Positions 29,748 through 40,997 of a DNA stretch of 64,000 nucleotides are shown one piece after another. The DNA is from Bryobacteraceae bacterium (GTDB taxonomy: Bacteria; Acidobacteriota; Terriglobia; Bryobacterales; Bryobacteraceae), in NCBI GenBank assembly GCA_049698695.1, contig JBAVYH010000216.1, forward strand, positions 6,992 to 70,991, written 5' to 3'. Numbering within the stretch: the stretch's first letter is position 1; every line of letters begins with the position of its first letter. The position numbers and the translations under genes were made by a program. Under the pieces are notes generated by a model. That model was not told the DNA's origin and searched no databases. It saw only the letters and a program-made list of their open reading frames with translations.

Positions 29748-30356
29748 ATGAAGCCGCCGGAATCGGATCACCAGCTATTTGAGCGACTCCGCGCTGGCCA
29801 AGAGCAGGCATTCGTGGCTCTGTACCATCGGCGGCAGCCGTCCCTCTACCGGTTCGCCCTCCAAATGAGCGGCTCGCCGCCTGTTGCCGAAGACGTCACG
29901 CAGGAAGTGTTCCTGGCACTGTTGCGGGAGGAGTGCGGCTACGACCCGGAACGCGGGAGCCTCGCTGCCTACCTGTTCGGGATCGCGCGCAAGCTGTTGC
30001 TGCGGCAGTTCGAGCGGCGGCGCTCCGATGTCGGCTTGGACACGGGCGCCGAAGAGGCGGGGGCTGCGGAACTGGCCGATGTTTCCGACCCGCTGGCGGA
30101 CCTGACGGCCCGGGAGCGCATCGAAGCGCTGCGCCGGGCGGTGAGCAGTTTGCCGCGCCGCTATCGCGAGGTCGTGGTGCTGTGCGACTTGGAGGAAATG
30201 GACTATGCCGAGGCCGCGGCGGCGTTGGGCTGCCCGATCGGCACGGTCCGCTCACGCCTGCATCGCGCGCGGCTGCTGCTGGCGGGGAAATTGCGTGACG
30301 AACGCCATGGGAGCGCTTCGGTTCCGGCGTGGAAGACCGCGAGGTGTGCGATATGA
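29748..30356 (+). CDS. ECF-type RNA polymerase sigma-70 factor
   Basis: Region 2 (AEDVTQEVFLAL) and region 4 (YAEAAAALGCPIGTVRSRLHRAR). Confidence 0.85.
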   Translation: MKPPESDHQLFERLRAGQEQAFVALYHRRQPSLYRFALQMSGSPPVAEDVTQEVFLALLREECGYDPERGSLAAYLFGIARKLLLRQFERRRSDVGLDTGAEEAGAAELADVSDPLADLTARERIEALRRAVSSLPRRYREVVVLCDLEEMDYAEAAAALGCPIGTVRSRLHRARLLLAGKLRDERHGSASVPAWKTARCAI

Positions 30357-30925
30357 ACTGCGAAGAGTATTGGAATGATATGGCCGGAGCCGAGCCGGCG
30401 GAAGGTTTCGACGCCCACCGGGCCGCGTGCCCCTCTTGTGCGGCCCGTTGGGCGGTGGAGCGTCCGCTGGCGGCCGGCCTCCGCCTGCTGGCCGCGGATA
30501 TGCAGGATGTGTCGGCGCCGCCGCGGGTGGAAGCGCGCCTGGTGCATGCCTACCGGGAACGGTACCGGCAGCGTGTCTCGCCTGCGGGGGGCACGCTTCG
30601 GTGGTGGGCCGCCGCGGCGGCGGTATTGCTGATCGCTACCGTGCTTTGGACGGGCGTGCGGCCGCCGCCGCCCCTGGTTGCCGCCAATGCCGGAGTTGCG
30701 CCCGCCGCCGGCATCGATGAAGAGGATGCTGCGTTTATTCCGCTGCCCAATGCCGCGCCCTTGCCGCAAGATGAGGATGTCGACCTGGTACGGGTGGAAT
30801 TGCCGCGCTCCGCGATCACCGCCCTAGGCATTCCGGCGAGCGATGACGGCGGCGCGGATAGTGTGGAAGCCGAGGTTCTGGTGGGCCCGGATGGCATGGC
30901 GCGCGCCGTCCGGTTCCTAAATTGA
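30353..30925 (+). CDS. Zinc-finger (zf-HC2) anti-sigma factor, single-pass membrane protein
   Basis: ATG overlaps the sigma-factor stop (ATGA). N-terminal C..H...C..C pattern (MNCEEY...HRAACPSCAARW). One central TM helix. Confidence 0.7.
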   Translation: MNCEEYWNDMAGAEPAEGFDAHRAACPSCAARWAVERPLAAGLRLLAADMQDVSAPPRVEARLVHAYRERYRQRVSPAGGTLRWWAAAAAVLLIATVLWTGVRPPPPLVAANAGVAPAAGIDEEDAAFIPLPNAAPLPQDEDVDLVRVELPRSAITALGIPASDDGGADSVEAEVLVGPDGMARAVRFLN

Positions 30926-30950
30926 CCCGACCCTGTCGCGGGAGCAGACG

Positions 30951-31751
30951 ATGAAGATGCGCAGCAGTTTCTCCTTTCTGATGGCGGCCGCCGCTCTCGC
31001 TTGGGCGCAAAGTCCGCCCGTTGGGCACGGCCGCTTCGGTCCCGGCCCGCGCTTCCTCGGCGCTGAGGCCGGGGTGCCGCGCCGCGTGGTCACGGGCGCT
31101 CCCTTCTCGGGAGATTTGGTCACCGAAAGCACCCAGACTTTGGCCGACGGCAATCGCATCCATCAAACCAGCACCGCGCACCTGGTTCGCGATAGCGAAG
31201 GCCGCACACGCCGCGAGGAATCGCTGGCAGGCTTGGGTGCGCTGGCCACAGGCGGAGGCGCGCAGCAGGTGATCTTCATCCATGACCCGGTGGCCGGGGC
31301 AAGCTACGCCCTCGACCCGGTGCGCAAGACCGCCAATAAGTCGGCATGGGCGGGGCGACGCGCCGCCGCGAGTCCCTTTGGCGCCGCCATTGAAGCGCAG
31401 CGTGAAATGCGCGCGGGTCTCAACCAGTCCGTCAAGACCGAAGCGCTCGGCACCATGACCATCGAGGGCCTCCCCGCGCAGGGTACCCGCACCACCATCA
31501 CCATACCGGCCGGCGCCATCGGCAATGAAGCGCCCATTCAGGTGGTGACCGAACGGTGGTATTCGGCCGATCTGCAGATGGCGGTCCTGATCAAACGCAG
31601 CGATCCGCGTAGCGGCGAAACCGTCACCCGGCTGACCAGCGTGAATCGCTCCGAGCCGTCGCCCGCCCTGTTCCAGGTGCCGCCCGACTACAAGGTTATC
31701 GAACGCCCCGCGGCGCGTTTCCGCTCCCCGTCCGGCGCTGCCGAGCAGTAG
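30951..31751 (+). CDS. Secreted hypothetical protein downstream of the ECF pair
   Basis: Signal peptide MKMRSSFSFLMAAAALAWAQ. Coding-like composition. No recognised domain. Confidence 0.55.
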   Translation: MKMRSSFSFLMAAAALAWAQSPPVGHGRFGPGPRFLGAEAGVPRRVVTGAPFSGDLVTESTQTLADGNRIHQTSTAHLVRDSEGRTRREESLAGLGALATGGGAQQVIFIHDPVAGASYALDPVRKTANKSAWAGRRAAASPFGAAIEAQREMRAGLNQSVKTEALGTMTIEGLPAQGTRTTITIPAGAIGNEAPIQVVTERWYSADLQMAVLIKRSDPRSGETVTRLTSVNRSEPSPALFQVPPDYKVIERPAARFRSPSGAAEQ

Positions 31752-31909
31752 CCCGGCGCGGCCCGGAACGCCGTCTCGTCCATCCCGGCCGGGCTTGTGT
31801 CAGCCGGCAGCCGAACCGGTACTTCACATCCTTTAATCGCGCTAGACTCTTGTTTGCGCGCGGTTCAAGGCGCCGGGCACGTTTAGGCGTGCGCGGCCGG
31901 GAGGTTGGT

Positions 31910-33286
31910 GTGAGCGCATCGGCACAGACGGTTCCGTTGGCAGACCGCATTTCTCTCAAGGAGAAAATCGCATACTCCTTCGGAGACGCGGCTTCGAATT
32001 TTTATTGGAAGACCTTCGAGTTCTTCCTGATGATCTTTTACACCGACGTCTTCGGCATCTCCGCCGCGGCCGTCGGCACTATGCTGCTGGTCACGCGCGT
32101 CGCCGATGCCGTGGCGGACCCGACGATGGGCGCTATCGCCGATCGGACCAAGACGCGCTGGGGCCATTTCCGGCCGTATGTCTTGTGGTTCGCTCTCCCG
32201 CTGGTTGTGGCGGGTGTGCTGACCTTCACCACACCCAATCTTGGCGGCGGCGCCAAGCTGGTTTACGCCTACATCACCTACGGTCTGCTGATGTTCCTTT
32301 ACACGGCCGTAAACATTCCTTACACCGCGTTGATGGGCGTGATGACGCCAAACTCGCAGGAGCGCACCTCCATCTCCTCGATCCGTTTCATCGGCGCCTT
32401 CACCGCCGGGGTGTTCGTGCAGTACTTCACGCTCCGGTTCGTCAAGTTCTTCGGCCACGGCAACGACGCGCGCGGCTGGCAGCTCACCATGGTGCTGTAC
32501 GGCGTTCTCGCCCTGACCCTGTTGGTGCTCTGCTTCGCCAGCACCCGCGAGCGAGTCGCCCCGCCGCCGCAGCAGGATTCCGATATCAAGCGCGACCTCC
32601 ATGACTTGTTCGGCAGCCGGCCCTGGCTGGTGTTGGTCGGCGTCCTGCTGATGGTGCTGGCATCGTTTGCCATCAAAGGTTCAGCTTCGACTTACTACTT
32701 CAAATACTTCCTGAAGCGCGAGGACCTGGTGGGGGCGTTCCTGGTCTCGAACGGTCTGGCGTTTCTGATGGCTGTTTCAATCACCTCGCGCATGGCGAAG
32801 TGGTTCGGCAAGAAACCGCTGTTCATGTTCGCGATCGGCGTCGGCGGGCTGGTGATTGGAGGTTTCTGGCTGGCGGGACCTTCGGACTTCTGGCTGATCT
32901 TCGTGCTGCAAATCGTCTCCAGCTTCGTGATCGGGTTCAACTCGCCGCTGGTCTTCGCCATGTTCGCGGATACCGCCGACCACGCCGAATGGCGCACCGG
33001 CCGCCGCACCACAGGATTGGTTTTCGCCTCGGCCATCTTCAGCACCAAGATCGGCGCAGCAATCGGCTCCTGGATGTTCGGCCTCATCCTCGCCTACTTC
33101 GGTTACGTGGCTAACGTGGAGCAAACCGCCCGCTCACTCCACGGAATCATCCTCACCATGAGCTGGATTCCATGCGTGCTGCTGGTAATGGCTGCCGCCA
33201 CCATGATGCTTTATCCGTTGAACGATCCCCTGATGGTGAAGATTGAGGCAGATCTAAAAGCGCGGCGGGGAGAGGCCGAAGCATGA
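31910..33286 (+). CDS. GPH-family (glycoside-pentoside-hexuronide:cation) MFS symporter
   Basis: KEKIAYSFGDAASNFYW, DAVADPTMGAIADRT..RWGHFRPY and 12 TM helices. GTG 31910 is preceded by GGGAGG. The track start at 31850 is less likely. Confidence 0.8.
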   Translation: MSASAQTVPLADRISLKEKIAYSFGDAASNFYWKTFEFFLMIFYTDVFGISAAAVGTMLLVTRVADAVADPTMGAIADRTKTRWGHFRPYVLWFALPLVVAGVLTFTTPNLGGGAKLVYAYITYGLLMFLYTAVNIPYTALMGVMTPNSQERTSISSIRFIGAFTAGVFVQYFTLRFVKFFGHGNDARGWQLTMVLYGVLALTLLVLCFASTRERVAPPPQQDSDIKRDLHDLFGSRPWLVLVGVLLMVLASFAIKGSASTYYFKYFLKREDLVGAFLVSNGLAFLMAVSITSRMAKWFGKKPLFMFAIGVGGLVIGGFWLAGPSDFWLIFVLQIVSSFVIGFNSPLVFAMFADTADHAEWRTGRRTTGLVFASAIFSTKIGAAIGSWMFGLILAYFGYVANVEQTARSLHGIILTMSWIPCVLLVMAAATMMLYPLNDPLMVKIEADLKARRGEAEA

Positions 33287-34356
33287 AGACCGCATTGCAG
33301 CCGTGGCGCACGCAGTCCTGCGTGCAGCGTCGAGATTCGTCTCGACGTTTCTTCACTCTGCGGCAGTTTGTTCTTTGCACATTCGCCGTGTGCCTGTTTG
33401 CCATGCCGTCTTCCGCGCTGGCGGCAGATCTGACCGTGCAGCAATGGAACGGTAACGGCATCGACTACTCCGGCTACCGGGCGGGCCAGAACCCGCAATT
33501 GAACCGCTTCCCGACGCAGGCGCAGATCCTCGAAGATCTCAAGATCCTGGAGAGGAACTGGACCCTGATCCGTCTCTACGGCGGGGATCAGCACTCCCAG
33601 GACGTGCTCGAAGTCATCCGGCGCGAGAAGATCGGCCTGAAGGTGCTGCTCGGTATATGGCTCGATGGCAGGCCCGGCCACGAAGCTGAGAGCGCGCAGC
33701 AGACCGCGACTGGAATCCGCCTGGCCAATGAGTATAAGGACATCGTGCTGGCGGTCGCGGTCGGCAACGAGATCCTCGTAACCTGGTCCGACCACAAGCT
33801 GACCGAAGAGAAAGCGCTCGAGTACGTCGCGCAGGTCAAGAAGGCGGTGAGCTGCCCGGTGACGGTCGCCGACGACTATCTCTACTGGCAACAGCCGCAG
33901 GCGAAGCTGGCGGACGCGGTGGATTTCATCGTCATGCACACGTATCCGATGTGGGGCCACGAGGACATTGAAACTGCCATGCCTTCGACCATCAGGAACT
34001 ATGAGAGCGTGCGCAAGGCGCATCCGGGAAAAACCATCGTTCTCGGCGAGGCGGGCTGGGCTTCCTACACCGTCGGCAAACAGCACGCTCCGCGGGCCGG
34101 CGACGAGAAGAAGCAGAAGCGTTATTACGAGGAACTGACCGCCTGGGCGAAGGCTAACAACGTAACGCTATTCTGGTTCGAGGCGTTTGACGAGCCCTGG
34201 AAGGGGAGCGGGACCGAGGGCCACTGGGGCCTCTTCTCCGAGGGCCGCAAGGCGAAGCTGGCCATGCAGGCGCTGTATCCGGACCTGATGCCCACCGGGC
34301 CGACCTCGCACGGTTACGATTCGCCGGCCGCGCCCGCCGTCAAGGCGAACCAATGA
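33283..34356 (+). CDS. Glycoside hydrolase family 17-like beta-1,3-glucanase, secreted
   Basis: Signal peptide. VAVGNEILV (acid/base Glu region) and VLGEAGWAS (nucleophile Glu region) match the GH17 pattern. ATGA overlaps with both neighbours. Confidence 0.7.
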   Translation: MKTALQPWRTQSCVQRRDSSRRFFTLRQFVLCTFAVCLFAMPSSALAADLTVQQWNGNGIDYSGYRAGQNPQLNRFPTQAQILEDLKILERNWTLIRLYGGDQHSQDVLEVIRREKIGLKVLLGIWLDGRPGHEAESAQQTATGIRLANEYKDIVLAVAVGNEILVTWSDHKLTEEKALEYVAQVKKAVSCPVTVADDYLYWQQPQAKLADAVDFIVMHTYPMWGHEDIETAMPSTIRNYESVRKAHPGKTIVLGEAGWASYTVGKQHAPRAGDEKKQKRYYEELTAWAKANNVTLFWFEAFDEPWKGSGTEGHWGLFSEGRKAKLAMQALYPDLMPTGPTSHGYDSPAAPAVKANQ

Positions 34357-37300
34357 GCACGGCCTTCGTCGGCGAAGCGCCGCTGCAGCGCGGCGCGCGA
34401 CAGGTGGAGGGCGGATCCATCGTCATCGGCGGCGAGCGTTTCTACCGCATCGTCAATTACGACGCGATGGCGCCGTTCCTGATGAGCCTGGTCAGCGGCT
34501 CGGACCATTGGATGTTCGTCTCGAGCACCGGCGGGCTCACCGCCGGCCGCAGGGATCCCGACCACGCCCTGTTCCCCTATTACACCGACGACCGCATTCA
34601 TGACAGCCAGGACCAGACCGGCGGCAAAACAATTCTGATCGCGACACGCAAAGGGCGCGCTGCGCTGTGGGAGCCTTTCTCACAGCGTTACGAGGGCCTG
34701 TACCGCATCACGCGAAGCCTGGCGAAGAGCGTCTATAGCAACAAGATCGTATTCGAGGAAGTCAACCACGATCTCGCGCTGTCGTTTTCCTGCGCCTGGA
34801 TGACGAGCGATCGTTTCGGCTTTGTGCGGCGCGCGACGCTGGCCAACCTGGGCGCGGAGCCGGTCGAAATCGATCTGCTCGATGGCATCCAGAACCTCTT
34901 GCCGCACGGCCTCACGCGCCGCTTCCAGATGGAGTACAGCACACTGGCGGATGGTTACAAGGAGGACGAGCTCGAACCCGAAACCGGCCTGGGCCTCTTC
35001 AAGCTCAGCTCGGTTCCAGCCGACCGCCCCGAGCCCAACGAGGCGCTCCGCGTGACTACGGTCTGGTCCGAAGGCATTGAACCGGCGCGCCGCCTGCTGT
35101 GCGCGGAGCAGCTGGGTCGATTCCGCCGGGGTGAGGCGGTGGAAGAGGAAACGCTGATCCGCGGCCGCCGTGGCTCGTATTTCGTCAACACCCGGCTGTC
35201 ACTCGCCGCCGCCGCACGCAAAGACTGGAGCCTGGTGGCGGAAGTGGATCAGGACGCCGCGGCTGTGGCGGCAATTGTCGGCCTGCTCAAGTCCGCCGGC
35301 GCGGCGTCATTACGTGGCAACTGCACCAACCGCCCCCCTACGGTCGCGGCTCCGATGCGCGCTCAGAGCCGCGACCGTGAGGGAACGGTAGCCGTCGATT
35401 CGAGCCCTAACCTGCGCGCGCAACTGGACGAGGACGTCGAGCGCGGCACTCGCAACCTGGTTCGCATCGTGGCCGCCGCCGACGGCCTCCAGCTTACCGG
35501 CGATGACCTCAGCTCTGACCGGCATTTCTCGAACACGCTGTTTAACGTGATGCGCGGCGGAATCCCCGACTCCGGCTACCTCATATCCCGCTCTAACTTC
35601 AAGGCGTTCGTTGGTAAGGCCAACCACGCGGTCGCCGAACGGCAAGCCGCGTTCGTGAACGCGCTCGACGAGACGCTGCCGCACAGCCGCCTGCTGGCGC
35701 TGGTGCGCGAGCAAGGCGACCCGGATCTCGAGCGCCTGGCGCACGAGTACCTGCCGCTGACCTTCAGCCGCCGTCACGGCGATCCCAGCCGCCCATGGAA
35801 CATTTTCTCCATCGAGGTGAAGTCCGAGCACGGCGAGCGAATCCTCAACTACCAGGGCAACTGGCGCGACATTTTCCAGAACTGGGAAGCGCTGGCGCTC
35901 TCCTTTCCCGGTTACGTGGAGAGCATGATCTTCAAGTTCGCCGGCGCCTCCACCGCCGATGGCTACAATCCGTACCGCATCATGCGCGACGGCTTCGACT
36001 GGGAGGTGCTCGATCCGCACGACGCCTGGTCTTACATCGGCTACTGGGGCGACCACCAGGTGGTCTACCTCTTGAAGCTGCTCGAAGTTTCTGCGCGCTA
36101 TCATCCCGGCGCCCTGGCGGGGCTGCTGACGCGGCGCGTCTTCACTTATGCCAACGTTCCCTACCGCATCAAGCCGTATCGCTCTCTGCTCGAAGATCCG
36201 CGCAACACCATCGATTTCGACTTCGCTCTCGATCGCGAGATTCGCCAGCGGGCCGAAGCCGTGGGCGCGGAAGGTAAATCTCTGCCGGGTGCCGATGGCG
36301 CGCCGTATCGCGTGAACCTGGCCGAAAAGTTGCTGGTCCTGGTGCTGGCGCGCCTCTTCAACTACATCCCCGAAGCCGGTCTCTGGATGAACACCCAGCG
36401 GCCGGAGTGGAATGACGCCAACAATGCGCTGGTCGGCTCCGGCGTCTCGATGGTGACGCTCTACTTCCTGCGGCGGTTTCTGTCGTTCTGCCGGGGCATT
36501 TTCGGCGCTGCGGGCACACCGGCGGTCGAGGTTTCCGCGGAAGTCGCAGAGGCCTTTCGGCGCGTCTCCGAAGCGCTGGAACGGCATGCGGGCCTGCTCG
36601 GCGTACCGATTTCGGACCGCGACCGCAAACGGGTCCTCGATGATTTGGGAATCGTAGGGAGCGACTACCGGGCTGGTCTTTATGCCCACGGGTTCTCAGG
36701 CCAGCAAGCAGCGCTCAGTGTCGCCGAGCTGGGCGCCTTCTGCGAGGTGGCGCTGCGCCACATCGACCATTCGATTCGCGCCAACCGGCGCGAGGACGGC
36801 CTCTATCACGCCTACAACCTCATGAAGGTCGATGGCGATGCGATCGTCATTCGCCGCCTCTACGAGATGCTGGAGGGCCAGATGGCAGTGCTGAGCTCGG
36901 GCGCGCTCTCCGCCCAGGAATCGGCGGCGCTGCTTGATGCGCTTCGCAACAGCCGCCTTTACCGTGCCGACCAGAACAGCTATGTTCTGTATCCGGACCG
37001 CAAGCTGCCGGGCTTTTTCGAAAAGAACAACATCCCGGCCTCGGCCATCGCGCAATCGAAGACGCTGGCCGCGATGATTGAACGCGGCGACCGCCGCATT
37101 GTGGTCGAGGATGTGAATGGCGTGGCTCATTTCAACGCGGCCTTCCGTAACGCCGCGCTGTTAAAGGACGCGCTCGCCGGCCTGGGCCTGACGGATGAAG
37201 AGCGCGCGCAGATTCTCGCGCTGTACGAAAACGTGTTCGATCACCAGTCCTTCACCGGCCGCTCGGGCACGTTCTACAAATACGAAGGGCTCGGCTGCAT

Positions 37301-37892
37301 TTACTGGCACATGGTTTCGAAGCTCCTGCTGGCCGTTCAGGAGGTGCTCGATCGGGCCGGCTGCGCAGGCGATGACGCCGCGGTAGTCGAACGCCTCAGG
37401 AGCCACTACCACCAGGTCCGCGAGGGCATCGGCGTCCACAAGCCGCCGGAGCTGTACGGCGCCATCCCTACCGACCCTTACTCCCACACGCCCGGTTTCG
37501 CGGGTGTGCAGCAGCCCGGCATGACCGGCCAGGTGAAAGAGGATCTCATCTCCCGGTTCGGCGAGATGGGCGCCGCCGTCACCGATGGACGGCTGTGCTT
37601 CCGCCGTCACCTGGTCAGCCGCGTCGAGTTTCTGCGAGTGGCGAGGACGTTCCACTTCTACGATGTCGACGGCGAGGAGCGCAGCCTCGATCTCGAGCCC
37701 GCCACGATGGCATTCACCACCTGCCAGACGCCGGTGGTGGCCCATCAGCCGGGCCCGCCCAGGATCGAGATCACCCGTGCCGGCGGCAGCCTGCAAGTGG
37801 TGGAAGGGCTCGACCTCGACGCCGGGACCAGCGCGGCGATATTCGAGCGCAGTGGAGCGGTCCGGCGGCTGGACGTGTTCGTCGGGTTCTAA
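34353..37892 (+). CDS. Large (1179 aa) cytoplasmic uncharacterised protein; putative GH94/GH149/GH161-like glycoside phosphorylase
   Basis: No signal peptide. Translationally coupled to the GH17 gene. Motifs GNWRDIFQNWE (~35859) and RPEWNDANNALVG (~36400) resemble the RD..QD and DWND catalytic blocks of GH94-type phosphorylases. Confidence 0.45.
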   Translation: MSTAFVGEAPLQRGARQVEGGSIVIGGERFYRIVNYDAMAPFLMSLVSGSDHWMFVSSTGGLTAGRRDPDHALFPYYTDDRIHDSQDQTGGKTILIATRKGRAALWEPFSQRYEGLYRITRSLAKSVYSNKIVFEEVNHDLALSFSCAWMTSDRFGFVRRATLANLGAEPVEIDLLDGIQNLLPHGLTRRFQMEYSTLADGYKEDELEPETGLGLFKLSSVPADRPEPNEALRVTTVWSEGIEPARRLLCAEQLGRFRRGEAVEEETLIRGRRGSYFVNTRLSLAAAARKDWSLVAEVDQDAAAVAAIVGLLKSAGAASLRGNCTNRPPTVAAPMRAQSRDREGTVAVDSSPNLRAQLDEDVERGTRNLVRIVAAADGLQLTGDDLSSDRHFSNTLFNVMRGGIPDSGYLISRSNFKAFVGKANHAVAERQAAFVNALDETLPHSRLLALVREQGDPDLERLAHEYLPLTFSRRHGDPSRPWNIFSIEVKSEHGERILNYQGNWRDIFQNWEALALSFPGYVESMIFKFAGASTADGYNPYRIMRDGFDWEVLDPHDAWSYIGYWGDHQVVYLLKLLEVSARYHPGALAGLLTRRVFTYANVPYRIKPYRSLLEDPRNTIDFDFALDREIRQRAEAVGAEGKSLPGADGAPYRVNLAEKLLVLVLARLFNYIPEAGLWMNTQRPEWNDANNALVGSGVSMVTLYFLRRFLSFCRGIFGAAGTPAVEVSAEVAEAFRRVSEALERHAGLLGVPISDRDRKRVLDDLGIVGSDYRAGLYAHGFSGQQAALSVAELGAFCEVALRHIDHSIRANRREDGLYHAYNLMKVDGDAIVIRRLYEMLEGQMAVLSSGALSAQESAALLDALRNSRLYRADQNSYVLYPDRKLPGFFEKNNIPASAIAQSKTLAAMIERGDRRIVVEDVNGVAHFNAAFRNAALLKDALAGLGLTDEERAQILALYENVFDHQSFTGRSGTFYKYEGLGCIYWHMVSKLLLAVQEVLDRAGCAGDDAAVVERLRSHYHQVREGIGVHKPPELYGAIPTDPYSHTPGFAGVQQPGMTGQVKEDLISRFGEMGAAVTDGRLCFRRHLVSRVEFLRVARTFHFYDVDGEERSLDLEPATMAFTTCQTPVVAHQPGPPRIEITRAGGSLQVVEGLDLDAGTSAAIFERSGAVRRLDVFVGF

Positions 37893-37990
37893 GCGCCGCC
37901 GCGCGGCCGCGCCCGGCGCTACAATCATGCTGCACTCGGGATGTGGTGTCACTTTTTGCCGGGAACCGCATCTCCAGTACCAGAGGCCAC

Positions 37991-38395
37991 ATGGAAGTCA
38001 GCATTCGGTATCAGGGTAACGTCAGATTCGAAGCCGAAGCGCGCGGGCATCGCGTGATTTCGGACCAACCGGTGTCAAACGGCGGCGAGGACGGAGGCAT
38101 GACGCCGCCGGAGCTGCTGGTTTCGTCGCTGGGCACCTGCGCCGGTTATTACGCCGCGCAGTATTTGAAGGCGCGGTCCCTTTCGGCGGAGGGACTCGAA
38201 ATCCGCGTGACCGCAGACAAGGCCCTGCAACCGGCCCGGCTGGCCCAGTTCCGCATTGAGGTGACCGTTCCCGGCCTGGACGCCGCGCACGAGGCCGGCA
38301 TTCTGCGGGCTGTGAAATCCTGCCTGATTCACCACACGCTGCTCCAGCCGCCGGCCATCGAAACGGTGTTCAAGGCCGTCGCGACGGTAAGCTAG
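37991..38395 (+). CDS. OsmC/Ohr family peroxiredoxin-like protein
   Basis: GGEDGGMTPPELLVSSLGTCAGYY and CLIHHTL contain the two conserved Cys. The track ORF start at 37595 is an extension overlapping the upstream gene. Confidence 0.8.
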   Translation: MEVSIRYQGNVRFEAEARGHRVISDQPVSNGGEDGGMTPPELLVSSLGTCAGYYAAQYLKARSLSAEGLEIRVTADKALQPARLAQFRIEVTVPGLDAAHEAGILRAVKSCLIHHTLLQPPAIETVFKAVATVS

Positions 38396-38423
38396 CGCCA
38401 CGACTGTGTGAGGGCATTCCTTT

Positions 38424-38499
38424 GTGGGGCAGCTTGCCAAGCTGCGGTCCGATTGCGCGGCGGTTGCCAACCGCCGCGCAGGATGCCATCCTGCCCCAC
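38424..38499. other. Cluster of three GC-rich hairpins 3' of osmC
   Basis: The three hairpins are GCAGCTT-GCC-AAGCTGC, GCGCGGCGG-TTGCCAA-CCGCCGCGC (38455-38479) and GCAGGAT-GCC-ATCCTGC. They are bracketed by GTGGGGCAG...CTGCCCCAC. Confidence 0.4.
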
Positions 38500-38600
38500 G
38501 CCGAGTCGCCGCCTGCTTCAAACTCGGCAAGCCGTTACTCGCCCGGCTTCGCTTTTTGACGTGCCTCACGCCGCGCCGCGGCGTCGCAAGAGTTCGCCAT

Positions 38601-38690
38601 TCAAGTGCCCACGCCCAGGCGCGGCAGCACCCATTTCATCAGCGCGAAATACGCGGCCATCAACAGGACGATCTGCAACCAGTCGGGCAC
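38601..38690 (-). CDS. Candidate 29-aa small membrane protein
   Basis: GTG start preceded by GGAGGAG at suitable spacing. Encodes VPDWLQIVLLMAAYFALMKWVLPRLGVGT (one TM helix). Below the track size cut-off. Confidence 0.35.
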   Translation of the reverse strand: MPDWLQIVLLMAAYFALMKWVLPRLGVGT

Positions 38691-38846
38691 GGTAGCTCCT
38701 CCGTCTATTGTCCCAGATGCAATGCACGCCGCGAGGTGACACGGCGCGCCGCCAGCAGGTTAAGAGCGCCCGAGCACCGCTAGTTGACGCGCGCGGCTCC
38801 GAAGCGTTACACCCAGGGCGGATGGCCTTCTCTGGCGTTGGCCGCG

Positions 38847-40997
38847 TTACGGGAGCACCGTGAAATCCGTCCACTGGCTGGCCGCTATGGCTTTTCCGCC
38901 TTGCTGCTCGGTCGCGATCACTTGCAGATCGTAGTCGCCGGGAGTCAGTCTGTCCGCCAGTTTCAGCGCGCCGAACGCGGCCGGACCACGGTCTTTCATT
39001 TCCACCAGCTTCGCCGGCGCCGAGTATATCTCCTTGCCATCGCGTAGAACGCGCACGCGCGTCTCCAGGTCCACTTTTGACCTTTTCTTGGCGCCGTTCT
39101 CAATCGCGCAAAGAAACTCCACCAAGCCGCCGCGCTTGAACTGCCGCAGCGCCGGCGTGATGTCAAGCAGCTCGGACGCCCAGGGCGACCGTTCGCCATC
39201 CCGTAGTATCACGCTGGCCAGGGCGAGTCTTGCCTTTTTCAGATTCGGGATCTCGATGAACTGCGTGGCCGAGCCAATCTTGCCCGTCGCTTCGTCCCGC
39301 ACCGCCGCGCGAATCTGGTACGCACCGCGCTTCGGCACCGGCACGTCCAGCGTGTACAAAGCGCCATCCCGCAGCGCGTCGGTCATCCTTCCCGCCGCCA
39401 CCTGCACGTTGTAGATGCGGCCCACCGCGGCCAGCGGCTGGTCACCAGCACCGGTGGCGACCACGAACAGCATAACCCGCGACCTGTCGCTGCCATCAAG
39501 GTCGTGCTCCCAACTCAGGTCGGCTGCGTTGATCCGAAGCAGATTGCGAACCACGGGACCTCGCTTCGGAACCTCCGCGTACAGCGCCGTCAGCCGCAAC
39601 CCCACGCCGGAAGACTTGAACGGCGACAACATGGCGGCACGCAACTGTTCGATCGGCGTGTTGAACTTGGGAACCGTTTCGTCGTCGGTTTCCCCGAAAA
39701 ACCCGGACCGCGAGCGAACCTGCAGCCCGGCGCGCGTCACTTTCACCTGGATGCGGTGAAAGCCGCGCCCGCCGTTCTTGCCTTGCCACGTGCTTTCCAA
39801 CGGATGATACCCCAGCAGGTAGTAACCCGCCTGATCCTCCAGCACCCGCGCGAGCCCCCAATTCATGTCGTTGCCGTTGTCGTAGGCCAGCCCGCCCGTC
39901 TGCCCCGCGAGGTATGCGAGATTCTCCTCTTGGACCTCGTTGCTGAGGTCCCTTTCGTCATTGACGCCAACATGGGTGTGGTTGTTTAGGGTGGTGTCCC
40001 CTGGTACCCCCGCCGTCTCAGTCAGCTCCGGGTTGTCCTCCGCGCCCGGTTGCAAAGTCTGTGCTCCAGTTGCGCGCATGGTGTAAATCACGGTGCCCGA
40101 CCGGTTGGCCCGGTCGATCAGGAGCCGGAGCACGCGCACAACGTCGGCGTAACTTTCCGGGGCGTCGTGTGCCCGATGCGCGTTTGCTCTATGGACATGT
40201 GGACCAACGCCAGCCTCAAACATCTGAAGCCCGTCCGAGAACAGCACGATTGATTTGCGCCCAGGCATCTCGCGGAGCGCACCAACGATATAGTTGACCG
40301 CCCCAAGAGTGCCAACGGTGGCGAGCGCGCTGCTCCTGGCGTCATCCGGCCCGGAGCCACCGCTGGGGACAGAGCCGATCAAGTCCTCCCAGGACGAGTA
40401 CTTGCCGTATGGATCGAAGTACGTCGCGCCAAAGCGTCCATTGGGGTTCCAGCGCAAGCCGTTGATGATCGACAGCAGCACCCGTTTATCGGCGCTGAAT
40501 TGCTGCAAGGCGCCCGATCCGGCGCCAGTCCGGCAAATCGCCACCAGGTCGCCTGGCTGCATCTGTTCGTTGACAAACCTGCGCAGCGACCTGCGCACGA
40601 GTGCCATGCTTTCGAAGGAGAGGCCGAGGTCGTCCACCATCAGCACGATGGTGCGCCGCACGTCTTCCGGGCGAAGCTGCGCGAGGGGTGGAGGCGGCAA
40701 GGCATCAACGGGCTTAGGCGAAAGCTTTTCACGGGCCGCCTCGAGTTCCGGGGTTACCTGGACATACGAAAAGTGCGTCAACTTCTGCAGCTTGCCATCT
40801 TCGAAGACCTGGAACTCTTCCGGTTTGAGATCTGTAATGTGATGTCCTTTGGAATCGGTCACGACGGCGTCCACTTGCACCAATGTCGAGGTGACGCGGA
40901 AAACCGTGGCCGGCTGCTGGGAGTCCGGCGCCGGCGCCGCGGGCTGTTGCCCGGAAGCGAACAACGCACCCAGGAAGAGGCCAGCCGCTGCCTTCAT
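38847..40997 (-). CDS. Secreted VWA-domain protein (acidobacterial VWFA type), paralogue 1
   Basis: Signal peptide MKAAAGLFLGALFASGQQP. VWA block TIVLMVDDLGLS (DxSxS-like MIDAS region). Long beta-rich C-terminus. Closely similar to the upstream gene. Confidence 0.8.
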   Translation of the reverse strand: MKAAAGLFLGALFASGQQPAAPAPDSQQPATVFRVTSTLVQVDAVVTDSKGHHITDLKPEEFQVFEDGKLQKLTHFSYVQVTPELEAAREKLSPKPVDALPPPPLAQLRPEDVRRTIVLMVDDLGLSFESMALVRRSLRRFVNEQMQPGDLVAICRTGAGSGALQQFSADKRVLLSIINGLRWNPNGRFGATYFDPYGKYSSWEDLIGSVPSGGSGPDDARSSALATVGTLGAVNYIVGALREMPGRKSIVLFSDGLQMFEAGVGPHVHRANAHRAHDAPESYADVVRVLRLLIDRANRSGTVIYTMRATGAQTLQPGAEDNPELTETAGVPGDTTLNNHTHVGVNDERDLSNEVQEENLAYLAGQTGGLAYDNGNDMNWGLARVLEDQAGYYLLGYHPLESTWQGKNGGRGFHRIQVKVTRAGLQVRSRSGFFGETDDETVPKFNTPIEQLRAAMLSPFKSSGVGLRLTALYAEVPKRGPVVRNLLRINAADLSWEHDLDGSDRSRVMLFVVATGAGDQPLAAVGRIYNVQVAAGRMTDALRDGALYTLDVPVPKRGAYQIRAAVRDEATGKIGSATQFIEIPNLKKARLALASVILRDGERSPWASELLDITPALRQFKRGGLVEFLCAIENGAKKRSKVDLETRVRVLRDGKEIYSAPAKLVEMKDRGPAAFGALKLADRLTPGDYDLQVIATEQQGGKAIAASQWTDFTVLP

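Follow-up and report, generated by a model that had tools for sequence, protein, structure and literature searches.

A three-gene operon for predicted beta-1,3-glucan use in a Bryobacteraceae acidobacterium, with a repeat-derived loop in its GH149 phosphorylase

Among the glycoside phosphorylases of family GH149, the closest described relative of the enzyme reported here is Pro_7066 (PDB 6HQ6 and 6HQ8; PMC5827456, PMC6771811), which stems from a marine metagenome. Its conserved active site comprises the WND loop W651/N652/D653 with D653 as the catalytic residue, the RD motif R470/D471, and H959 (PMC6771811), and the domain definitions used below, including those of Dom 1 and Dom 2, come from the same work. 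In published gene clusters, GH149 was found together with GH17 and a pfam13347 transporter of the major facilitator superfamily (MFS), with a TonB-dependent receptor and GH16 as further members, and Bacteroidetes have laminarin loci in which GH149 is joined by GH17, GH16, GH3, and GH30 (PMC5827456). Laminarin loci of the same theme were described for Muricauda in a 2026 preprint (bioRxiv 10.64898/2026.01.22.701063), and GH149 is already listed in surveys of Acidobacteriota. Here we analyzed a stretch of 64,000 nt, in the following called the window, from contig JBAVYH010000216.1 of a Bryobacteraceae acidobacterium from soil or peat (GCA_049698695.1; 5.6 Mb in 216 contigs). The window contains three overlapping genes on one strand, which code for a GPH-family symporter (gene 1), a GH17 enzyme (gene 2), and a GH149 phosphorylase (gene 3). 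As shown in Table 1, the GH149 gene carries a palindromic repeat inserted in frame. We consider it highly probable that the three genes constitute a compact operon, coupled in translation, for the use of beta-1,3-glucan, in which GH17, the symporter, GH149, and a phosphoglucomutase would act in this order, and that the repeat-derived loop is a tolerated passenger.

By family model, homology, and predicted fold, the product of gene 3 is clearly a regular member of GH149. It reached 1570 bits with the NCBIfam equivalog NF058639 (cut-off, 1150), which was matched in two stretches flanking the insert, and a phmmer search against PDB entries gave 1200 bits over the full length for Pro_7066 (6hq6), with weak matches only for GH94 and GH161 phosphorylases. 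An AlphaFold2 model calculated with 30 homologues in the alignment had a mean predicted local distance difference test (pLDDT) score of 84.4 and a predicted template modeling score (pTM) of 0.84. When this model was compared with Foldseek, 6hq6 ranked first (template modeling [TM] scores, 0.91/0.95; root mean square deviation, 2.8 Å; 46% identity over 1171 columns), followed by GH161 with TM scores of ~0.6 to 0.7 and then by GH94. The beta-sandwich, the helical linker, the (alpha/alpha)6 domain, and the C-terminal jelly roll of Pro_7066 are all present, and the GH149-specific Dom 1/Dom 2 stretch aligns without large gaps. The two proteins differ in a 36-residue repeat-derived loop in the linker of the acidobacterial enzyme, near residue 313 as counted in Pro_7066, and in their source, a marine metagenome for Pro_7066 versus a soil or peat acidobacterium here.

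An earlier note on this DNA, made from its letters alone, had taken the 1179-residue protein for a GH94-like phosphorylase of the GH149 or GH161 type and had suggested looking for an (alpha/alpha)6 barrel in a predicted structure; family model, homology to 6HQ6, fold, and catalytic residues now place it in GH149 over its full length. The two motifs quoted in that note, GNWRDIFQNWE (residues 502 to 512) and RPEWNDANNALVG (residues 683 to 695), coincide exactly with the active-site motifs of Pro_7066 that are known as RD and WND; residue matching allowed for the difference of 19 between the numbering in the paper and that of the PDB chain. The RD, WND, and His residues, which GH149 has in common with GH94, are identical in Pro_7066 and invariant in 30 of 30 homologues from many phyla. 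In agreement with the earlier note, no leader was seen at the N-terminus. By orthology to characterized enzymes, the gene 3 product is predicted to catalyze the phosphate-dependent, inverting cleavage of beta-1,3-gluco-oligosaccharides.

The same note had held that the protein might belong to a distant or new family, and the lack of a match to any Pfam family would fit such a proposal. This empty result reflects the absence of a Pfam model for GH149 rather than novelty. The NF058639 score is far above the cut-off, the identity to a solved GH149 enzyme extends along the whole length at a TM score of 0.95, and a scan of one genome per species yielded at least 599 confirmed GH149 relatives. These results refute the idea that a phosphorylase family of its own, new or very distant, begins with this protein, and we assign practically no probability to it.

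From the same scan, 80 GH149 loci of other genomes were fetched (labeled L003 and so on; genomes of the same genus are labeled G001 and so on). A GH17 gene was present in the flank of 53 of these loci and lay adjacent on the same strand in 37, and the exact order MFS-GH17-GH149 was found in four (L003, L006, L008, and L011). The earlier note had proposed a pathway of GPH importer, GH17, and cytoplasmic phosphorylase. Because the neighborhood of GH149 with GH17 and an MFS transporter is published and GH17 recurs in so many of the fetched loci, this pathway is supported, but it is already known from laminarin loci. As in the Alteromonadales type II GH149 clusters and the Bacteroidetes laminarin loci, GH149 stands beside GH17 and a PF13347 inner-membrane MFS transporter, and the logic proposed for those systems is likewise breakdown outside the cytoplasm, import, and cytoplasmic processing. 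In contrast to them, the present locus consists of only three overlapping genes in the order MFS-GH17-GH149 and contains no TonB-dependent receptor, SusC/D pair, GH16, GH30, GH3, or regulator. Furthermore, the GH17 enzyme of the type II clusters was described as cytoplasmic, whereas the one encoded here has a leader.

Both ATGA overlaps noticed earlier, at 33283 and 34353, are present. The G+C content at third codon positions was 0.80 to 0.82 in all three frames, which is of coding type and resembles that of real genes of this genome; the G+C content of the window is 57 to 68%. GH17 and GH149 are each single-copy in the genome. In promoter and terminator scans of positions 31500 to 38900, sites were no more common than in shuffled sequence.

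The transporter scored 422.8 bits with TIGR00792 gph (cut-off, 231.35) and 328 bits with Pfam MFS_2 (PF13347; model positions 2 to 427 of 427), which bears out its earlier assignment to the GPH family. The GTG start codon is preceded by GGGAGG, and the orthologue in the nearest relative, L003, is 83% identical and aligned from residue 1 as counted from this GTG. A GPH symporter paralogue (40% identical) elsewhere in the genome adjoins a GH3 gene (C92:16489-20097), and the two may represent a second oligosaccharide-uptake module.

The gene 2 protein is homologous (E values of ~1e-26) to the Formosa endo-laminarinase FbGH17A (PDB 6fcg; E, 2e-26; 96.1 bits) and to the Rhizomucor glucanosyltransferase RmBgt17A (PDB 4wtp; E, 1e-25; 93.8 bits; residues 43 to 325 versus 17 to 289). 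Both catalytic glutamates of GH17 enzymes, the acid/base after strand 4 and the nucleophile after strand 7, are kept, and a (beta/alpha)8 barrel is expected from this homology. FbGH17A comprises 430 residues versus 357 in the acidobacterial enzyme, whose length is nearer to that of RmBgt17A. The N-terminus is signal-peptide-like, as the earlier note had stated: a charged region is present, the maximum Kyte-Doolittle hydropathy over 15 residues is 2.12 at residue 29, and ALA/AD is found at residues 45 to 49. Hydrophobic leaders were also present in the GH17 homologues of six relatives (L003, L006, L008, L011, L040, and L049) and absent from that of L017. Within the leader, the sequence SRRFF (window 33340 to 33354, residues 20 to 24) resembles a twin-arginine (Tat) motif; the closest homologue, in L003, has no RR. 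Because a leader-bearing enzyme of a diderm host is more likely to be periplasmic than extracellular, we place GH17 most likely in the periplasm. The extracellular trimming by GH17 that had been suggested is thus not settled: the periplasm is likely, and GH17 enzymes of the short type include transglycosylases, exo-glucosidases, and hydrolases.

In the proposed pathway, the leader-bearing GH17 would have its site of action outside the cytoplasm, with the periplasm being most likely. Its substrates would be beta-1,3-glucan chains or oligosaccharides, derived for example from laminarin or from the glucan of fungi or plants, which it would cut or remodel into short laminari-oligosaccharides. Judged by its family and context, the GPH symporter would import the oligosaccharides through the inner membrane by cotransport with a cation. 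In the cytoplasm, GH149 is predicted, by orthology to characterized enzymes, to remove glucose from the non-reducing end with inorganic phosphate under inversion, yielding alpha-glucose-1-phosphate and a chain shortened by one unit. Asp688 would serve as the catalytic acid, Arg505 and Asp506 would hold the sugar phosphate, and His986 would be located at the phosphate site. A phosphoglucomutase encoded elsewhere would then channel the product into glycolysis, with a saving of one ATP per glucose. Elsewhere in the genome we found three phosphoglucomutase/phosphomannomutase (PGM/PMM) genes, 11 GH3 matches, and two GH16 matches. Matches to GH16 and GH3 domains share a single open frame of 1264 residues (C127:3024-5207), which may code for a fused beta-glucanase/beta-glucosidase.

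Several points weigh against this pathway. The operon has no outer-membrane transporter, GH16 gene, or dedicated regulator and thus does not account for the entry of polymer into the periplasm. The transporter did not reach the cut-off of any named NCBIfam transporter equivalog (the best, a YagG-like one, gave 412 versus 610), and laminari-oligosaccharides are its presumed substrate by context only. The Pfam GH17 model PF00332 gave 23.9 bits with gene 2, below the gathering threshold of 28.2, and covered the C-terminal 74 residues only; this model appears to be weak on the gene 2 protein, which is matched much better by the two GH17 enzymes of solved structure. The GH17 leader was recognized only from visual inspection and hydropathy. 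The 36-residue insertion in GH149, together with its mRNA hairpin of -54 kcal/mol, could lower expression or activity. Finally, GH17 may not be an endo-glucanase, since it aligned end to end with the transglycosylase RmBgt17A and in two gapped pieces with the endo-laminarinase FbGH17A.

The last point bears on a variant of the pathway in which GH17 is a beta-1,3-glucanosyltransferase or an exo-glucosidase that sizes periplasmic oligosaccharides for the symporter. Besides the pattern of alignment, the short mature enzyme of ~310 residues would fit this variant, and in the Muricauda study the beta3-alpha3 loop was markedly longer in bacterial endo-laminarinases than in transglycosylases, RmBgt17A, and the exo-acting FbGH17B (bioRxiv 10.64898/2026.01.22.701063). 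However, differences in subdomains and length among GH17 enzymes were not directly tied to activity in that study, the bit scores for the endo-laminarinase and the glucanosyltransferase are nearly equal, and the type of activity is not readable from a GH17 sequence. We regard the variant as a serious possibility that falls short of being probable.

The missing outer-membrane uptake component would also suit an operon that turns over or synthesizes a beta-1,3-glucan of the cell itself, either periplasmic or capsular, with GH149 in a synthetic or recycling role. Reactions of GH149 are reversible in vitro (PMC5827456), and bacterial GH17 transglycosylases are known. On the other hand, GPH symporters act in import, catabolic laminarin loci across many phyla contain the same trio, and no glucan synthase gene is adjacent to the operon. 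We consider turnover or synthesis of an endogenous glucan very improbable and infer a flux in the direction of glucan breakdown.

In-frame insertion of small palindromic elements is known, most famously from Rickettsia (review, PMC10969869), and a high-copy family similar to repetitive extragenic palindromic (REP) sequences, linked to class 3 Y1 transposases, was described for Solibacter usitatus (PMC6006769). The insertion in the GH149 gene, which was missing from all 16 aligned relatives of other genomes, is derived from such a dispersed REP-like repeat, here termed the first repeat family. The hairpin of the GH149 copy has a folding energy of -54.3 kcal/mol (z, -3.2), and the core consensus of the family is ACCGCTCCCTGACGGTCGCGGCTC-loop-GAGCCGCGACCGTGAGGGAGCGGT. 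The nested palindromic core was found at 99 places in the genome; 49 of these copies are near-full (at least 45 nt), with 74 to 93% identity. Only about five of the 49 near-full copies lie inside long coding-like frames, and many copies are intergenic and located just after stop codons. The GH149 copy alone lies deep in a long coding frame, which extends for 379 residues upstream and for 833 residues downstream of it. The family is thus of the REP type, namely, a short imperfect palindrome in many dispersed copies, mostly between genes. It was present in 13 of 13 genomes of the genus and patchy in the order, and copies with exact arms were limited to Bryobacterales, Solibacteraceae, and Terriglobia metagenome-assembled genomes (MAGs). 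In G004, six first-family copies at distances of ~240 to 275 nt form a regularly spaced array on one strand (C102:22299-23669).

In its high copy number the family resembles the class 3 REP-like sequences known from Acidobacteria and Planctomycetes, which include that of the related Solibacter usitatus (PMC6006769); the repeat sequence of S. usitatus for a direct comparison was not found in the supplements of that paper. A possible difference from known REP and palindromic-element systems is that no Y1 transposase gene was found beside a copy: for the 13 Y1_Tnp matches in the genome, no repeat core was found within 1.5 kb and no 13-nt arm within 800 nt, with the limit that the division of the assembly into 216 contigs could split a flanked copy. 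A search of the insert against Rfam gave only matches to plant microRNA hairpins at chance level (19 to 24 bits versus gathering thresholds of 67 to 168).

In the AlphaFold2 model, residues 318 to 351 form the sole long stretch of low confidence (pLDDT, 27 to 29) and have no secondary structure. The insert is placed between the linker helices 302 to 321 and 354 to 375, away from the catalytic domain, and is predicted to form a disordered loop. Most likely, the repeat-derived loop is a tolerated passenger that does not disable the enzyme. Alternatively, the insertion might have crippled GH149 or its expression, in which case the gene would be decaying and the pathway inactive in this host; a foreign palindrome of 108 nt within a coding sequence, the stable hairpin, and the absence of the insertion from the closest relative, G008, would all be compatible with such a decay. 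However, the frame is intact, free of stop codons, and complete in its catalytic residues, the same site holds in-frame insertions in five other species, all with lengths divisible by 3 nt, and the modeled loop between the two linker helices lies off the catalytic domain. In addition, the ratio of nonsynonymous to synonymous substitution rates (dN/dS) over 1126 shared codons was 0.12 to 0.16 in all pairs, including those bearing insertions, which indicates that GH149 is kept under purifying selection and remains functional. A decaying gene is therefore very unlikely, and we retain the interpretation as a tolerated passenger.

The insertions in the sister species listed in Table 1 are all located at the same codon position, equivalent to position 35298 of the window; their lengths are all divisible by three, and they are free of stop codons. 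An assembly artefact was rejected on the basis of the in-frame continuity and of the insertions at this site in the independent assemblies of the sister species. Some of the insertions belong to a second repeat family with the hairpin AAAAGCCGAGACGACTCTCGGCT and the core GAAGAAAAGCCGAGACGACTCTCGGCT..., which gave 68 blastn matches over many contigs of the present genome. In the GH149 gene tree, the present genome was placed beside the insertion-free G008 (100% support), and G005, G003, and G006 formed one clade (100%). Because the tree sets this genome next to an insertion-free species and the other repeat family in a separate clade, repeated events are suggested rather than one ancestral insertion. 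The results favor at least two to three separate insertion events, or one old insertion followed by remodeling and precise losses, and are undivided between the two. The stronger proposal, that the GH149 linker is a recurrent landing site at which REP-like repeats of at least two families were inserted in frame repeatedly and kept as loops, is in our judgment evenly poised. [quoted passage not shown] They differ from the Rickettsia elements in that the host is a free-living soil acidobacterium and almost all other copies are intergenic, and from known REP and palindromic-element systems in that the same codon position was hit by two repeat families in sister species.

The closest named GH149 relatives, with 60 to 83% identity, are from Bryobacteraceae and other Acidobacteriota MAGs. 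Within the genus, 11 of 13 genomes contain GH149, but it was absent from all 18 genomes that represent other genera in the same family and order. Such a patchy occurrence is a hint that the gene was acquired by transfer, in contrast to the vertical inheritance that was put forward when GH149 was founded (PMC5827456). A GH149 protein with 62 to 65% identity was also found in a MAG labeled Candidatus Brockarchaeota archaeon (L005, JAFNIX010000008.1), which reflects either inter-domain transfer or a binning error.

The operon is preceded by genes for an extracytoplasmic function (ECF) sigma and anti-sigma factor pair, an unknown protein of 266 aa, and a regulator of the PAS-LuxR type and is followed by an OsmC-like gene and by two acidobacterial VWA-domain genes. 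The ECF sigma gene, the weak anti-sigma match, and the gene of the 266-aa protein, which has no family, are located directly upstream on the same strand (window 29748 to 31751); a weak ECF sigma match was seen in one relative locus only (L044). The OsmC-like gene (37985 to 38395) lies ~90 nt 3′ of GH149 on the same strand. It did not adjoin GH149 in any fetched locus, some of which have short downstream sequences, and is probably not part of the module. In the relatives' loci searched, none of the ECF sigma/anti-sigma, 266-aa, OsmC-like, or VWA genes recurred beside GH149. Because these flanking genes are not syntenic in relatives, we regard the trio as the conserved unit, and for the same reason no regulator can be assigned to the operon.

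Table 1. Features of the operon and of the GH149 linker site (positions refer to the window unless a contig is given)
Feature	Position	Strand	Basis or remark
GPH-family (MFS_2) sugar:cation symporter, 458 aa (gene 1)	31910..33286	+	TIGR00792, PF13347; GTG start 31910, frame reaches back to TTG 31850
ATGA overlap, transporter stop/GH17 start	33283..33286	+	sequence
GH17 enzyme, 357 aa, short type (mature ~310 aa) (gene 2)	33283..34356	+	homology to 6fcg, 4wtp
Signal-peptide-like leader of GH17, residues 1-47	33283..33423	+	SRRFF 20-24, hydrophobic core ~29-43, ALA/AD 45-49
GH17 Glu163 (VGNE), predicted acid/base	33769..33771	+	aligns with GNE/GSE motif of 6fcg, 4wtp
GH17 Glu256 (GEAGW), predicted nucleophile	34048..34050	+	aligns with ISETGW of 4wtp; ISATGW in 4wtr mutant
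ATGA overlap, GH17 stop/GH149 start	34353..34356	+	sequence
GH149 beta-1,3-glucan (laminaridextrin) phosphorylase, 1179 aa, no leader (gene 3)	34353..37892	+	NF058639, 6hq6, AlphaFold2 model
In-frame 108-nt insertion, residues 316-351, from dispersed REP-like palindromic repeat	35298..35405	+	boundaries uncertain by ~12 nt
Hairpin core, 24-nt arms ACCGCCCCCCTACGGTCGCGGCTC and GAGCCGCGACCGTGAGGGAACGGT, 13-nt loop	35329..35389	.	consensus of 45 copies
GH149 Arg505-Asp506, RD motif, sugar-1-phosphate recognition	35865..35870	+	R470/D471 of Pro_7066
GH149 Trp686-Asn687-Asp688, WND catalytic loop, Asp688 predicted catalytic acid	36408..36416	+	W651/N652/D653 of Pro_7066
GH149 His986, phosphate recognition	37308..37310	+	H959 of Pro_7066
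Linker site, this genome	+108 nt		first repeat family
Linker site, G004 (L092)	+78 nt		first repeat family (part)
Linker site, G005 (L093)	+105 nt		second repeat family
Linker site, G006 (L094)	+165 nt		both repeat families
Linker site, G003 (L099)	+78 nt		second repeat family, reversed
Linker site, G009 (L102)	+12 nt		no repeat family identified
Linker site, G001, G008, G011, G012, L003	0 nt		none
Second repeat family, example copies, this genome	C100:51358-51410, C193:7057-7108, C93:5759-5809		

By itself the three-gene operon adds little, as its large protein would be recognized as GH149 with the present NCBI family models and the gene arrangement is a pared-down form of laminarin loci already published. 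The repeat-derived loop represents a further example of a phenomenon that is known. The operon shows the pathway in a minimal, self-contained three-gene form in soil or peat Acidobacteriota. The loop provides a tangible example of the absorption of a REP-like element into an enzyme under purifying selection, with the same site hit repeatedly in sister species. This example helps to understand the influence of small mobile repeats on proteins and marks an insertion-tolerant position in the GH149 linker. If the linker is indeed a recurrent landing site, it would represent a counterpart, in free-living soil bacteria, of the Rickettsia palindromic elements and would offer a natural experiment to learn at which sites of proteins peptides encoded by selfish DNA are tolerated.

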